Virus record (IMG/VR): IMGVR_UViG_3300028888_000001
Strand: one strand, 5' to 3'
DNA length: 64,000 bases
From: a virus
Lineage: Duplodnaviria > Caudoviricetes
The translations under genes and the position numbers were made by a program. Positions within the stretch are counted from its first letter, which is position 1. Every line of letters begins with the position of its first letter. Of the stretch, positions 15,450-26,182 are shown piece by piece. The notes beneath the pieces are model-generated. The model was not told the DNA's origin, did no database searches, and saw nothing but the letters and a program-made list of their open reading frames with translations.

Positions 15450-17489
15450 ATGCCAAGTGTAGGTATTAGAAAGTCTCCCAGTATGGGAAACTTTAGCAAA
15501 GACCCCATGTATGCGTATGCTGCAAGCTTCTGCGATGTGCAGAAGAACATTTTACGTGAGTCTCAAGTAGACTATGCTATGGAACCGCAGCGCGCTCTGG
15601 CTTTCAAGGGTAATGTTGATGCTCTTAAGAGCTTCTTTATTGAAAATTCTGTTATCGGAGATTCCAAGACTATTACACAGGAAGAGTATCAGGATCAGCT
15701 TGACATGATGTCTGAGGCTTTCCAGAATGATATCCAGGCAGTTCGTGAGAACGCCGTTGCCGGTATTGCTTCTTGGAATCCTATGATCGGTCTGTCTCTG
15801 CCTATGCATAAATATCTTATGCTTAATACCGTATTTGCACAAGCCGTTCCGCGTTTTGTTGCTAAGGCTCCGGCATGGACAGAATCCATCGAGACCCGTT
15901 ATATGGTTTCTCCTACCGGCGAAAAGATTGATATTGCAAATCAACAAAATCAGATTTATCGTATTTGGAGATCTGCTAATCAGCCTGTTGAAGTTCCTGT
16001 TGCACTTCCTGAGCTGCAGTCCATCGATATTCTTGACAAATATTTCTCTGTTTCTCGTGTTTCTCATAATCTTTCTGTTGCTACTCACATTTCCGCTATT
16101 CTTGTAGAAGACTTTGCTAAGGCTGGCGATACTGTAGTAACCATGACTCAAGGAACAGATGGATATGAATTTACTGAAGCTGAAGCTACCGCTGATGGTA
16201 AAGCTCTAGTTTGGAAGCCTTGGAAGGCTGAATTCACTCCTGGATATGGCGATGCTAATCGTATTATCGTTTCTCCTGTAGATATTCTTGTTACCACTGA
16301 TGGTACCGAAGCTACTGAAACTGCAGTTCATGATACGATCTTTGCTTCTCAGCGTGAGAACATGTTTGAGATTAACTCTACCTCTGGTGCAGTTAAAGCT
16401 GTTAAGATCTGGGCTCGCTATGATGCATCCTCTAGAACACGCAAGACACCTCGTGTAGAGTGGGGTGAGAAGACTATCTTCGTACAGGTTCCTGAAAACG
16501 ATGGTATTACTGTACCTGTAACTCCTGAGGAAGTTAAGGATATTGGAGCTCTGTATGGCATTAACCAGGTTACCAAGTACATGAGCATGATCAAAGACGT
16601 TATGGAGAACGTTAAGGATGATGATATTCATGAGCAGCTTGACCTGAGCTTCGAGCGTCTTGATGACGAGCATAAGCTTGCTAAGACTATTGACTTTGCG
16701 CCTCGTGTAGGATATTACAGCGATCATCTTGAATGGCTGCAGAAGACCTTCATGAACTCATTAGATCAGTTCATCACCGGTCTACTTACAGTTCTGAGAG
16801 ATCCTAACATGGAAATCAGTCTTATTGCAAGGCCTGGCATTATCCGTCAGATCACTCCTATCGAGTACACCTATCAGACTTCTGATTCTGTTGGCCCGAT
16901 CCAGCTTGATTTCAAGAAGACTGTTGTTACTAGCGATCATCGTGTATACAACTTCATTAGCTCCGATAAGCTGTTTGGTAATGACAACATCATTATCCTG
17001 CTTAACCCGAAGAATACCAATCGTATAGTCTACAGACTGTATGATTATCAGATGTATCTTTCCAATGAGATTCGTGACGCTGAGAATCCGCAGCTTCCCG
17101 CTCTGACTGCATTCGAAAGATATAAATTCTTTGAACTGTTCCCGGTTCAGGGTAGAATGTTTGTTGCAAATCCGTCTGGGCTTAGAGAGCATCTTCCGAA
17201 CGTTGATCCTATCGGTCGTCCGGCTGATGGTAGCCTGTATGCAAATAATGATTTGAATAGTACTTTCAGTCATTGGTCGGATCTCACCGGACGTAATGCT
17301 ATTACCGAGAACGTTCTACCTGAGACTGACGCCACTGGTAATAGTGGTCAAGGCGGTACTACTGGCGGTGGCACGACTGGTGGCGGAACTACAGGTGGTG
17401 GTACAACTGGTGGAGGTACAACTGGCGGTGGAACCACTGGAGGCGGTACGACTGGTGGAGGTACAACTGGCGGTGGTACTACTCCGTAA
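15450..17489 (+). CDS. major capsid protein precursor
   Basis: 679 aa, strong high-expression codon bias, own late promoter, AAGGAGG RBS, strong terminator, adjacent to scaffold-like and protease genes. Confidence 0.8.
   Translation: MPSVGIRKSPSMGNFSKDPMYAYAASFCDVQKNILRESQVDYAMEPQRALAFKGNVDALKSFFIENSVIGDSKTITQEEYQDQLDMMSEAFQNDIQAVRENAVAGIASWNPMIGLSLPMHKYLMLNTVFAQAVPRFVAKAPAWTESIETRYMVSPTGEKIDIANQQNQIYRIWRSANQPVEVPVALPELQSIDILDKYFSVSRVSHNLSVATHISAILVEDFAKAGDTVVTMTQGTDGYEFTEAEATADGKALVWKPWKAEFTPGYGDANRIIVSPVDILVTTDGTEATETAVHDTIFASQRENMFEINSTSGAVKAVKIWARYDASSRTRKTPRVEWGEKTIFVQVPENDGITVPVTPEEVKDIGALYGINQVTKYMSMIKDVMENVKDDDIHEQLDLSFERLDDEHKLAKTIDFAPRVGYYSDHLEWLQKTFMNSLDQFITGLLTVLRDPNMEISLIARPGIIRQITPIEYTYQTSDSVGPIQLDFKKTVVTSDHRVYNFISSDKLFGNDNIIILLNPKNTNRIVYRLYDYQMYLSNEIRDAENPQLPALTAFERYKFFELFPVQGRMFVANPSGLREHLPNVDPIGRPADGSLYANNDLNSTFSHWSDLTGRNAITENVLPETDATGNSGQGGTTGGGTTGGGTTGGGTTGGGTTGGGTTGGGTTGGGTTGGGTTP
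17352..17483 (+). repeat. 15-bp coding repeat encoding GGTT-(GGGTT)8 at the capsid C-terminus
   Basis: Direct reading; synonymous codons vary between units. Confidence 0.95.
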
Positions 17490-17520
17490 TAAACAATTAA
17501 ATATAATACTAGCAAGTATT

Positions 17521-17556
17521 AAACCCGTAGGGAGAAATCCCTACGGGTTTTCTTTT
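17521..17556 (+). terminator. Rho-independent terminator of the capsid gene
   Basis: AAACCCGTAGGGA-GAAA-TCCCTACGGGTTT plus T-tract. Confidence 0.9.
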
Positions 17557-17586
17557 GATTAATTGTTTATGATTTTAACATTGATT

Positions 17587-17922
17587 TTAGCATTCGTTCT
17601 TTTTACTTGTATCCATTAAAACATATAATGATTTATTTTTTGAAGGTCGTTTACCTTTTAACCGATGCTCCATAATTTCATCTATTTCCATTTCTCGTTC
17701 ACCCAGATCATTCAAATACTCTTCAGGATAATTACGTTTTCTGCATACTTTATTATACATACTAGCTGCAGCTTCTGCATCATCAAATGTAAAATAATAA
17801 TCCCCATCTACTCTACAGAAATAGTTATCTGATTTATTTGGGAATACGCCAAAATATCCTGTAGAATTTAGATTTTCTTTTGTTTTTACAGACGTGGAAA
17901 ATTTGTTTATTTTGATTGTATA
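17587..17922 (-). pseudogene. orphan AP2 DNA-binding domain, remnant of an HNH-AP2 endonuclease
   Basis: Open frame NSTGYFGVFPNKSDNYFCRVDGDYYFTFDDAEAAASMYN...LNDL resembles the AP2 repeats of 48289..49455; no ATG/GTG/TTG upstream of the domain before the in-frame TAA at 17925-17923. Confidence 0.65.
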
Positions 17923-17930
17923 TTATAGCA

Positions 17931-18294
17931 GTAGATAGAAGACAATAGTCTCTATTAGCCGGCCTTTTGGCGTGCTTGAAATAGTACGAACAAGCAAAAC
18001 TTGTTCTCAAAAAGGTCAGGTAAAATAAGATGGTAACGCTTTTGATAGCGTCTATTAGTTTATCATTAAGTAACACGAAAAGACTAATAGCGGAGCACAT
18101 ATATTTTATCTGGTCTGTCGGGAGTACGATAGGGGATACTCGTGCAAAACGACTAAAAGGCAAAAGAATAGATTATTCCCGTTTATACTAACCTATCAAT
18201 AGTATAAAAGGTTAAGCTTGTCAACTTGACCTCGCTCTGCATACTATAGGTGACAATCTATAGTATGAACAAAGCAATCGTAATTTATTTTTTT
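17931..18294 (+). ncRNA. large structured non-coding RNA of unknown class
   Basis: Early motif at 17916-17927; nested helices with G-U pairs that work only on the + strand; ends in three hairpins and a T-tract; no plausible + ORF. Confidence 0.7.
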
Positions 18295-18442
18295 GTAAGA
18301 TATTACCGTTTAATTTCGATGGGAGCTTCGGCTCCCACACCTTCGGGCGGTTTTATTTTTTCTTCTTTTTCTCATTATTTGGACAATCAAATAATGAGAA
18401 AAACAAACTTTACTTTATATTTTTTAAGGAGATAAACAAGAC

Positions 18443-18640
18443 ATGTATAATTATTATAAGTCTCCTGCGGAGGTATATCACGAATCTAATATATTAAGTA
18501 AAGCTTTAACTCGTGGTACAACTAATAGTTTATATCCAATGACGGATATCAATTCAGTATTCACTCATTTTGATCCATCGGTTGGTAAAAATGTACCGAC
18601 GGCAAATGTTTTATCAAAAAATAATTTAAAGGAGAGTTGA
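18443..18640 (+). CDS. small late protein
   Basis: Late motif at 18382; AAGGAG RBS. Confidence 0.65.
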   Translation: MYNYYKSPAEVYHESNILSKALTRGTTNSLYPMTDINSVFTHFDPSVGKNVPTANVLSKNNLKES

Positions 18641-18643
18641 ATT

Positions 18644-19792
18644 ATGGAACGAGTCCCAACAAATTTTGATTTTTCTGTTTTAGGGCATCTTCTTGTGAAT
18701 TTAGATGAGGATCATTCTTCAACGACATTGTCTAAAATCCAAGCAGAGCTGAATAAATTCTTTATAAAAACAAAATGTAAAGGCGTTTATTTTACACGTA
18801 ATACTGATAAGCTTTTCTTTGGTATGAAAGTTTATCCTATAATATCTGGAGATGAAGCGATTAAAGTACTAACTGTAGATTCTCCATCTGTATTTGATGG
18901 ATACTATGTAGAGATCGATTCTAAGCTATGTGATCCAATGCTCTATATCAATGATAAAGAATGGGTCGCTTTAATGCTTCATGAGGTTGGTCATATTGTA
19001 TATGATACATCAACAATCGATGAAGTGAGAAATCATATTGATGCATATTTTGCTAGAAGCGGAGAAAGTATAGATCTTAAATCTTCTAGAGGATTTAGAG
19101 AATTATTAGCATGGGCTCTTAAAGATGCGTGCGTTAAAGCAGCTTCTATTTTTGCTAAGCATGGTAATAGTGAACTGATTGCTGACGCTTTTGTCGCTGG
19201 ATGTGGTTTTGGGCCAGAACTTGAATCTGCAATGAAGAAGATTGTTGCTGGGATCTCATATATGCAAAAAGATATCGATGATAGATTTATAGCTCTATCT
19301 TGGGTACTGCGAGTTGGTAGAGAGTTTGAGCTTTTTAGAATACCGGCTGTAAAAACTCTTAATAAAGCATCTATGCTTACCGGCTCTTCAATGGAACGTA
19401 AAGAAATTCAATATGCGTCTAAAGTATTAGCCACAATGAGTGATCCTATGTCTGAGGGAGTATTTGAAAATATTGGTAACGCATGGAATGCTGCTATGAA
19501 TAGATTCAAGCAGAAATCTATACGTGGTGTTAAGCAAGATGTTTATGAATTACAGCTTAGGCTTAGGACTGCTGAAGAAATGGATGAACTAATGACGATT
19601 ATTAGATCGTGTAATAACTATATTTCAATTCTTCAAGATTATATGACAGAAAATATTTCTGATAGCGAAAGAGAAGATTGCTGTAATGTGTTGCAAGATC
19701 TGTATGCTATACGTCAGCAAGCTGCTAAAGACAAGAATGTTAGAGCACGCTATTCTGGTTATATTCAAGTTGTATACCCATCAGCAGATTAA
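18644..19792 (+). CDS. late HEXXH metalloprotease-like (probably virion) protein
   Basis: LMLHEVGH plus ELIADAF...GFG motif typical of zincins. Confidence 0.65.
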   Translation: MERVPTNFDFSVLGHLLVNLDEDHSSTTLSKIQAELNKFFIKTKCKGVYFTRNTDKLFFGMKVYPIISGDEAIKVLTVDSPSVFDGYYVEIDSKLCDPMLYINDKEWVALMLHEVGHIVYDTSTIDEVRNHIDAYFARSGESIDLKSSRGFRELLAWALKDACVKAASIFAKHGNSELIADAFVAGCGFGPELESAMKKIVAGISYMQKDIDDRFIALSWVLRVGREFELFRIPAVKTLNKASMLTGSSMERKEIQYASKVLATMSDPMSEGVFENIGNAWNAAMNRFKQKSIRGVKQDVYELQLRLRTAEEMDELMTIIRSCNNYISILQDYMTENISDSEREDCCNVLQDLYAIRQQAAKDKNVRARYSGYIQVVYPSAD

Positions 19793-24242: not shown

Positions 24243-26182
24243 ATGAAGATGTATGATTTAGTAAATAAGGAGGGATTTATCCATGTTGATGATTGGGACA
24301 CTGAAGAAAACCCGGCCCCGGAAGAAGATCGAATATTCAAAAACATTAAGGGAGAGATAATATTACCAATACATGAGCTGTTTGGTAATCCAAATGACTC
24401 AGCGGATGCACAACAATTAGATTATTTTGCTATGTCACCAAAACGTTCATATAATTCAGATGAGACTAGAGAACATATTTGCCGTTATCTGAATTATTTT
24501 GAAAAGTTTTATGATACTGACAAAGAATTGTTAATGGTTTTGTATGAAATCAAGATAAATATAGACTACATTCATAGTTATTCTATTCAGAACTTCATGG
24601 ATGATGTCAATAGATACATCATACGAAATCTCAATATAACGCTGAAGATTAGGCATTTTGTAGATGATAATTATTTGATGCATCTAACGTCGAACAATAG
24701 AACTCCGAATCTTCAGTTTAACAATGTACACGCAAAGATACTTTACGAAATTTCTCTTTTGAGCAATATGTATATACCATTAGCTTGCCACTATATGTAT
24801 ATACATTTCATAAAAAATGAAAAAATAGCAGAATTTATGTTGCAACTATTTGATATGGCTATGGTAAAATATGAAGAAGAGCGAGGTGTGTATATATTTG
24901 ATAAGCTATTAGAGACAGCCATTTCAGTTGTAAATAAATCTAAGAATCCAGATCAGCTATTATGGGAAAAGAATCTTATTCGTGGTAATAATACAACAAC
25001 GCATGCAAGAGACAGCGTTAATGATATTATCCTTCAAATTCTTCCCAAATATAAGTATACTGCAAACGTTGTATCATTTAATTATTATTCAAGTAGAAAA
25101 ACTTTGCAGTATAAAATTACTGATAATTCGTATGAATTTAATTTTTCTAAGTTAAGTTCATCGAAAAGAGATAGTGATCAAAACAGCGAATACGATAAAA
25201 TATCTTGTCGCCTCATTGTGGTAACACAGTGTTGAATAACTCTTTTTAATTGCTGGGAAGTGCTAAGAGCCTCTATGCCTAAATGGAGACGAAAGTCAGA
25301 AATAAGTTAGAGGATGGCTCATGCTGAAATAAAAGCTTCACTTATGTGAGGTGCTAAAAGCCGTTAACAATGTATAATCAGCAACCAAGCTATATTTATA
25401 CAATATAGAAGGTTCAACGACTATCTTAGGAATAAGATTAGAGCTCAAGTGAGTTCAAAATGGAAGAGCATCCTATACGACATAGGATGGTGATATAGTC
25501 TGAGCATCCAGAGAAATACTGGAGAAGTTCATAAGAGAACTGCTAGGATTAACGACCCTAGTGAACATAGCTGAGGTATGAGGCCCGATTATCGAAGAGA
25601 GACGAAGCTCTGTATCTTCAGAATAAAGTTGCAGCTGAGCAAACTGTAAAAGTTATAGAGCAATTATATGGGCCATTTGAACAAGAAGAAATCAATCACT
25701 ATAAAGCTAAACTTATAGTAGATGGATCTCCACTAATTCATCCACTACAAAGACAGCTTATAGGATATCTTTATTATAAAGACTTCTCAGATCCGATAAC
25801 ATACATGAGTATACATAACTCGACAGATTATATTAAACTCATTATTGCGGCTAAGAGAATGTTACTTAATACTGGCATGGTATTATTACCATATATAATG
25901 AGTTCTAAAGTTACTCGATTGGCAACTAGAAAAATTATATCTAAAAGAGACATCACTAAGCAAGAGAATTCCGTTATATATGAACAGCTTAAAGAAAAAT
26001 ATAATAATGAAAAAGTAATTCAAAAGATATGGGAATTTATAGGAATGGTATGCTCTTCTTCATTTCAGATTATTGATTATGATATTAATAACCATTGCCC
26101 TACTCAATATGATGGAAAAATGGTTCCAATGATTAACGATATTTTGAATGAGGAATTGTTATTCTTTATAATTTCAATTTGA
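24243..26182 (+). CDS. intron-split gene, join(24243..25196,25574..26182), 520 aa; probable non-virion RNAP promoter-specificity (sigma-like) subunit, AR9 gp226-like
   Basis: Splicing restores a continuous frame (...NSEYD|RYEARLSKRDE...); early motif at 24192; size and position near the chaperonin mirror AR9 gp226/gp228. Confidence 0.6.
25197..25573 (+). mobile_element. group I intron (IA-like), 377 nt, no homing endonuclease ORF
   Basis: P AATTGCTGGGAA 25248, Q AATCAGCA 25376, R TTCAACGACTAT 25413, S GATATAGTC 25492; P1 CGAUA/UGUCG with U-G at the 5' splice site; P10 AUAUCU/AGGUAU; terminal G 25573. Confidence 0.92.

Follow-up and report, generated by a model that had tools for sequence, protein, structure and literature searches.

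A predicted structured non-coding RNA gene with an early-type promoter behind the capsid gene of an AR9/PBS1-like jumbo phage

The 64,000-nucleotide stretch of phage DNA analysed here (the window) very probably contains a genuine non-coding RNA gene, which lies between the major capsid gene and a pair of genes for proteins of 65 and 382 amino acids (Table 1). The first-pass annotation had described a novel, unclassified phage non-coding RNA, and in view of the early promoter, the strand-specific fold, the non-coding codon use and the lack of any Rfam match this is still the best reading, with the correction that one outer helix of the original description is wrong. We regard the RNA as a good candidate rather than an established family. 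The window belongs to a complete phage record of 313,331 bp with terminal repeats. Its terminase is nearest to those of the Bacillus phages PBS1 and AR9 (34% identity) and its capsid protein weakly matches that of phiR1-37, which together identify an AR9/PBS1-like jumbo phage. The public sequencing run that best matches the phage, among the matches listed, is a sheep gut sample and possibly its source, and the public runs listed include no RNA sequencing run containing the phage.

Table 1. The predicted RNA unit and its surroundings in the window
Feature	Position	Strand	Details
Major capsid gene and its terminator (context)	15450-17550	+	gene itself 15450-17489
HNH endonuclease-type gene, 564 aa, 3′ remnant (context, outside the RNA)	17587-17875	-	90% identity to L029; PHROG HNH matches
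Early (virion RNA polymerase-type) promoter	17915-17932	+	core TATATTAT (17919-17926); start site (+1) predicted at 17933 (or 17934)
Predicted non-coding RNA	17933-18296	+	about 363 nt
P1, 5′-terminal hairpin	17934-17956	+	of the type that opens many early transcripts of the phage; pair probability 0.90
Core domain	17962-18161	+	P2 (17962-70/18153-61) closes a junction from which P3, P4, the P5 arm and P8 branch; z -4.8 alone
P3 and P4 hairpins	17971-18006	+	P3 17971-88; P4 17988-18006
P5 arm	18013-18116	+	15-bp helix (18013-27/18102-16) that includes three G-U pairs; at its end, a junction leads to P6 (18036-51) and P7 (18052-90)
P8 arm	18117-18153	+	18124-29/18140-45, with an optional GUCG/CGAC extension
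3′ domain	18162-18294	+	P9 (18162-76/18280-94) closes P10 (18182-208), P11 (18209-232) and P12 (18240-267); probability 0.93-0.99
Candidate crossing helix a	18091-18239	+	18091-96 with 18234-39, 6 bp, extendable to 7; net -2.7 kcal/mol
Candidate crossing helix b	18119-18181	+	18119-23 with 18177-81 (alternative partner 18132-38); net -3.5 kcal/mol
Candidate kissing loop c	18042-18199	+	P6 loop 18042-48 with P10 loop 18193-99, 7 bp; net -3.5 kcal/mol
Candidate kissing loop d	18218-18256	+	P11 loop 18218-23 with P12 loop 18251-56, 6 bp; net -2.3 kcal/mol
Double-hairpin terminator-like element with U-tract	18321-18361	+	class seen elsewhere in the genome and in relatives; apparently absent in one close strain
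Variant late-type promoter (inferred, GACA-N6-TA) with the 65-aa gene and the conserved 382-aa gene (context)	18382-19792	+	

Promoter, transcript limits and coding potential

The early promoter proposed by the first-pass annotation is real in pattern. The site at 17919 belongs to a class of 35 intergenic sites in the phage genome of the form TATATTAT-N6-A/G, with a purine at that position in 33 of them, and it agrees with the early promoters of AR9, in which AAATATATATTAT is followed by six bases and G at +1 and which are active without protein synthesis (PMC5312081). By analogy with AR9, we infer that transcription is early and carried out by the virion polymerase. The predicted +1 falls at the foot of hairpin P1, and nearly all of the other early sites are followed by a ribosome site within about 15-130 bases. 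The unit as a whole carries the features of an early cassette of AR9-like phages, namely a TATATTAT-N6-purine promoter, a 5′ hairpin and its own terminator. Many early promoters of this phage are followed by a hairpin that begins exactly at +1 or +2 (for example at window position 17934 and in the 19849 region), and such hairpins likely shield the 5′ ends of early transcripts. At the other end, two other studies (X2 and X3) provide contigs of near-identical strains with joints at 18294, which are only a weak hint of the RNA 3′ end because they fall at a T-run.

The RNA encodes no plausible protein. The sole ATG frame on the + strand has 53 codons; its codon score ranks at the 0.4th percentile among real genes, compared with the 50th for the 65-aa gene, its weak ribosome site is fully paired (probability 1.0), and it lacks a real homologue. 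Both this frame and one of 109 aa were rejected as proteins, and the phmmer matches are repeat proteins.

Secondary structure and candidate crossing helices

The segment from 17916 to 18294 folds at -110.1 kcal/mol, compared with -77.5 +/- 4.9 kcal/mol for 100 dinucleotide shuffles (z -6.63), and the reverse strand folds less strongly (z -4.61). RNA parameters fit better than DNA parameters (z -6.6 versus -4.7). The G-U pairs from which the strand had originally been assigned account for 12 of the 111 pairs in the curated helices and turn into A-C mismatches when the opposite strand is read; they therefore point to the + strand and to RNA. The core alone (17960-18172) reaches z -4.8 (range to -5.7) and the 3′ part z -7.6, and the neighbouring sequence at 17550-17900 is unstructured.

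The fold is probably better described by a model in which the 5′ hairpin P1 is followed by a four-way core and by a four-way 3′ domain that is closed by a 15-bp helix. Most helices of the first-pass annotation recur in this model, including P2 (pair probability 0.57), the hairpins P3 (0.82) and P4 (0.97), the long P5 helix (0.87) with its two inner hairpins, the GUCG/CGAC arm (0.44) and the three 3′ hairpins (0.95-0.99). The proposed outer helix of 17951-56 with 18167-72 does not: it has a probability of 0.0 and a net cost of +9.3 kcal/mol, and its strands have other partners, the first in P1 (0.90) and the second in P9 (0.97). P9 itself had been overlooked; the U-tract that was seen at the end of the RNA is its 3′ strand (15 bp, pair probability 0.97). 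The duplicated segments reported earlier are present in the sequence. The fold rests on one sequence, and no diverged homologue was found, so no compensatory change backs any helix.

Three small features of the sequence can be recorded here. The P8 loop (window 18131-18156) contains a ribosome-site-like run followed by a four-codon GTG frame, probably by chance. The RNA contains three copies of the word GCAAAA. Positions 18181-210 have what we take to be a resemblance to CRISPR repeats, for which Rfam gave no match.

Four candidate crossing helices, also missed in the earlier description, are mutually compatible, and each is predicted to be favourable by 2.3-3.5 kcal/mol after the cost of opening has been paid. 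A partner is available for nearly every free strand of the 3′ domain, and kissing loop c has an alternative partner in the P8 loop (18128-33). On the curated scaffold the crossing helices total -20.8 kcal/mol versus 6.7 +/- 3.7 in scaffold-keeping shuffles (0 of 400), and the excess has P 0.005 when two flanking bases are allowed to open and P 0.04 when the scaffold is chosen automatically by pair probability. On a plain minimum-energy scaffold the excess is absent (P 0.53), in a version of the test that also misses the known pseudoknot of true group I introns. The RNA model predicts three junctions and four crossing helices, with a significance for the latter that varies with the scaffold. 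Within this model the four crossing helices are likely to form, and they may lock the core and the 3′ domain together; their excess over chance is moderate and scaffold-dependent.

Comparison with known RNAs and distribution among relatives

At gathering level, Rfam yields nothing in the window, and the single match within 17925-18300 (12.9 bits, E 9.2) is a chance one. No family in Rfam matches, including RNase P, SRP, 6S, raiA, OLE, ARRPOF, the riboswitches and the small ribozymes. The first-pass annotation had seen no hallmarks of tRNA or tmRNA, and ARAGORN agrees, finding neither a tRNA-like domain nor a tag frame; a tmRNA-like reading of the sequence from 18144 onward was ruled out for want of the tRNA-like domain. 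The phage genome gives no match to the reverse transcriptase family PF00078, a member of which would accompany a retron or DRT non-coding RNA, and none to the TROVE family PF05731, a member of which would accompany a Y RNA, for which a tRNA-like domain is also absent.

The closest likenesses are to the ornate phage RNAs ROOL (RF03087) and GOLLD, which the RNA resembles without being a member of either family. All three are phage-borne, free of open reading frames and found in ruminant gut samples, and the present RNA is predicted to resemble the other two in its multiple junctions and its pseudoknots or kissing loops. ROOL averages 581 nt, contains six junctions as well as three pseudoknots and is located close to tRNAs (PMC5737381), and both ROOL and GOLLD build cages via kissing loops (bioRxiv 10.1101/2024.12.08.627333). 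The present RNA, in contrast, has 363 nt (GOLLD has over 800), has its own early phage-polymerase promoter and is known from one lineage only. It has no tRNA alongside, since ARAGORN finds none in the 64-kb window, and no sequence or model match: cmscan of the region with the ROOL and GOLLD models gives nothing at E 10, and neither does a search of the whole genome with RF03087, which was made without a positive control. A further likeness is to the raiA motif RNA, which is compact, pseudoknotted and of a similar order of size and folds as a monomer, but raiA is a widespread bacterial chromosomal RNA, whereas the RNA described here has no Rfam match and belongs to an accessory phage cassette. 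The early promoter-hairpin-gene-terminator cassettes of AR9-like phages share its promoter class, 5′ hairpin, terminator class and variable location, and differ in that their payload is a small protein instead of a structured RNA.

What follows the capsid gene varies. In distant relatives a spacer of 130-300 bases occupies this position. Closer relatives, whose 382-aa protein is 79-88% identical, have either three HNH-type genes or one 564-aa HNH-type gene in reverse orientation together with a 70-aa gene. None of the relatives found by protein-anchored look-ups carries the RNA there, and since the closer ones hold other genes at the site the RNA unit is accessory. In the window, just the last 97 codons of the reversed HNH-type gene are left (the intact gene of a relative is L029 7836-9530); its nuclease part is deleted, and a deletion of ~1.45 kb between two copies of a 10-base word apparently removed the rest of the gene. 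The 564-aa protein, annotated as HNH in PHROG, presumably also has AP2-like repeats. The statement that the RNA lies next to the capsid gene stands only loosely: the capsid terminator and the broken HNH gene intervene, and an early promoter of its own precedes the RNA. Given the early class of that promoter and the hot-spot nature of the slot, the closeness to the capsid gene is probably a coincidence.

In the near-identical strains of X2 and X3, low-depth contigs span most of the RNA and differ from it by 0-8%; these contigs have a depth of 2-4 and were placed at 80% likeness, and differences inside the RNA are about as many as in coding DNA. The upstream sequence in X3 resembles the start of an intact HNH gene, the extra terminator seems to be missing in X2, and in run X4 the RNA has no coverage; a further run, X1, may be the source sample. 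That the RNA persists while both flanks change mildly favours selection on the RNA. Beyond these strains, blastn against phages and plasmids gives no homologue, pattern scans of viral contigs and metagenomes are negative or at chance level, and a scan of GTDB gives a single match, which falls within a gene resembling pyrimidine phosphorylase. Covariance models built on the one sequence (R1 and R2) find nothing in 15 related IMG/VR records, AR9, BpSp, LPJP1, phiR1-37, AH12 and the fetched loci; the models are insensitive and many of the records are fragments, so that the absence of homologues is unproven. The narrow distribution could be that of a recent, decaying element.

Possible roles

The roles suggested at first were switch, ribozyme, scaffold and protein decoy. 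The tests lend no support to the first two, and scaffold or decoy is what remains. The reading we prefer, reached by elimination and held at somewhat below an even chance, is that the RNA is an accessory, self-contained early gene that acts by shape as a decoy or scaffold. To judge from AR9, the virion RNA polymerase would start at the gene's early promoter and transcribe it within the first minutes after infection. The product of ~363 nt would have its 5′ end in a hairpin and its 3′ end in a 15-bp helix, and with both ends hidden it should be stable. It would fold into two multi-branch domains, with the free strands of the 3′ domain predicted to dock on the core through three crossing helices and the domain held by one internal kissing loop. 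The compact RNA could capture a host protein, either an RNA-binding or a defence protein, at an early stage of infection, and it might form an oligomer if some of the kissing loops are intermolecular, as in ROOL and GOLLD. Like the small early cassettes of this phage family (promoter, payload and terminator), it would be carried as a unit, here in the variable slot that follows the capsid gene. A more far-reaching proposal, which we consider rather unlikely, is that a new class of knotted RNA serves as an immediate-early effector: made by the injected polymerase, it would disable a host defence or RNA-processing protein (or be catalytic), alone or as a kissing-loop oligomer, before phage translation.

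The structures of ROOL and GOLLD have been solved and their job is obscure, and their setting in tRNA clusters is uninformative on timing. The present RNA is small enough for routine probing or cryoEM, offers four specific long-range pairings and has an early promoter to itself. Confirmation would make it a candidate for an early effector that consists of RNA only, and would show AR9-like phages to swap RNA genes through the same cassette slots as small proteins.

A ribozyme, such as a circularly permuted or degenerate group I-like core that acts in trans or on itself, is improbable. The phage genome carries about ten group I introns of the AR9/PBS1-like kind (RF00028), the size and knotting of the RNA are suitable, and a few short motifs are similar: P7-like strands whose order is reversed (17946-51 with 18081-86 or 18149-54), strands that pair like P4 (17973-78/17991-96), and P12, which resembles the P9 hairpin of the phage's introns. 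However, RF00028 at E 10 misses the RNA and finds true introns, an HMM of the phage's own introns recovers true introns and detects neither the RNA nor either of two permuted forms of it, and no other Rfam ribozyme matches. P6 is absent, the conserved joiners are lacking (J6/7 and J3/4 are wrong), the motif order is reversed, with the S-like strand 5′ of the R-like strand, and the P7-like pairing has a net cost of +4.1 kcal/mol. The RNA also interrupts no gene, standing between complete units under a promoter of its own. The first-pass view that this is not a canonically ordered intron is borne out, and a permuted group I core was rejected as well, on the negative profiles, the missing P6 and joiners and the unfavourable P7-like pairing.

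A functionless cluster of hairpins, or an mRNA for the 53-aa protein, has a similarly low probability. No homologue is found beyond the near-identical strains, and other intergenic gaps of the phage genome also fold strongly, owing to their terminators. The nested two-domain architecture, the G-U bias and the strong folding of the core by itself are, however, not those of isolated hairpins, and the codon score and the buried ribosome site oppose translation.

The early timing and several exposed loops would suit host takeover by a small RNA that pairs with host transcripts, or by a precursor that is cut into smaller RNAs. This is quite improbable: the free strands pair with each other, and in the phage genome, to which the search was confined, there is no antisense target of at least 15 nt. 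Pairing with the phage's 620-nt RNA is not special either (-23.3 versus -20.4 +/- 1.7, best shuffle -23.8).

It is very unlikely that the RNA is a guide or partner of the neighbouring HNH endonuclease in the manner of HEARO or omega-RNA. The two lie head to head, and one close strain seems to retain the 5′ end of the gene beside the RNA, but the HEARO/omega-RNA model gives no match, the adjoining gene is divergent and broken, and a 90%-identical intact gene occurs without the RNA in L029, L030, L191 and L192. Here the RNA is kept despite the deleted nuclease part, and the two are on opposite strands. No better placed is a cis-acting leader or attenuator that switches between alternative folds for the 65-aa and 382-aa genes, for which the duplicated segments would permit alternative pairings, P9 ends in a U-tract and the extra terminator seems to be missing in one strain, but the downstream genes have their own late-type promoter and are conserved in all relatives examined, where the RNA is missing. 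P9 and the 3′ hairpins each keep to a single state (0.93-0.99), and no riboswitch family matches.

Several observations concern the rest of the genome. A Gly/Thr repeat tail at the end of the capsid gene (window 17352-17489) is missing in most relatives, whose capsid proteins have 615-640 aa, and the capsid C-terminus (about 17200-17330) has a motif in common with the 65-aa protein (window 18443-18640), also in relatives, which suggests a duplicated capsid-tail module. A group I intron at window positions about 25174-25600 (+), or 80367-79942 of the whole phage genome (G000), scores 50.1 bits in the genome search and was missed by the window-wide Rfam scan at gathering level; the same gene also bears an intron in L029, L031 and L032. 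A terminator family with a shared GGGAG(A/C)AATCCC centre and a varying outer stem is repeated in more than a dozen copies in G000. Between tRNA-Gln and tRNA-Leu (G000 166390-167094, - strand) lies a second large structured region that is free of open reading frames and has no Rfam match; it is without similarity to, or special pairing with, the capsid-side RNA, and the phage may therefore carry two unclassified large RNAs.
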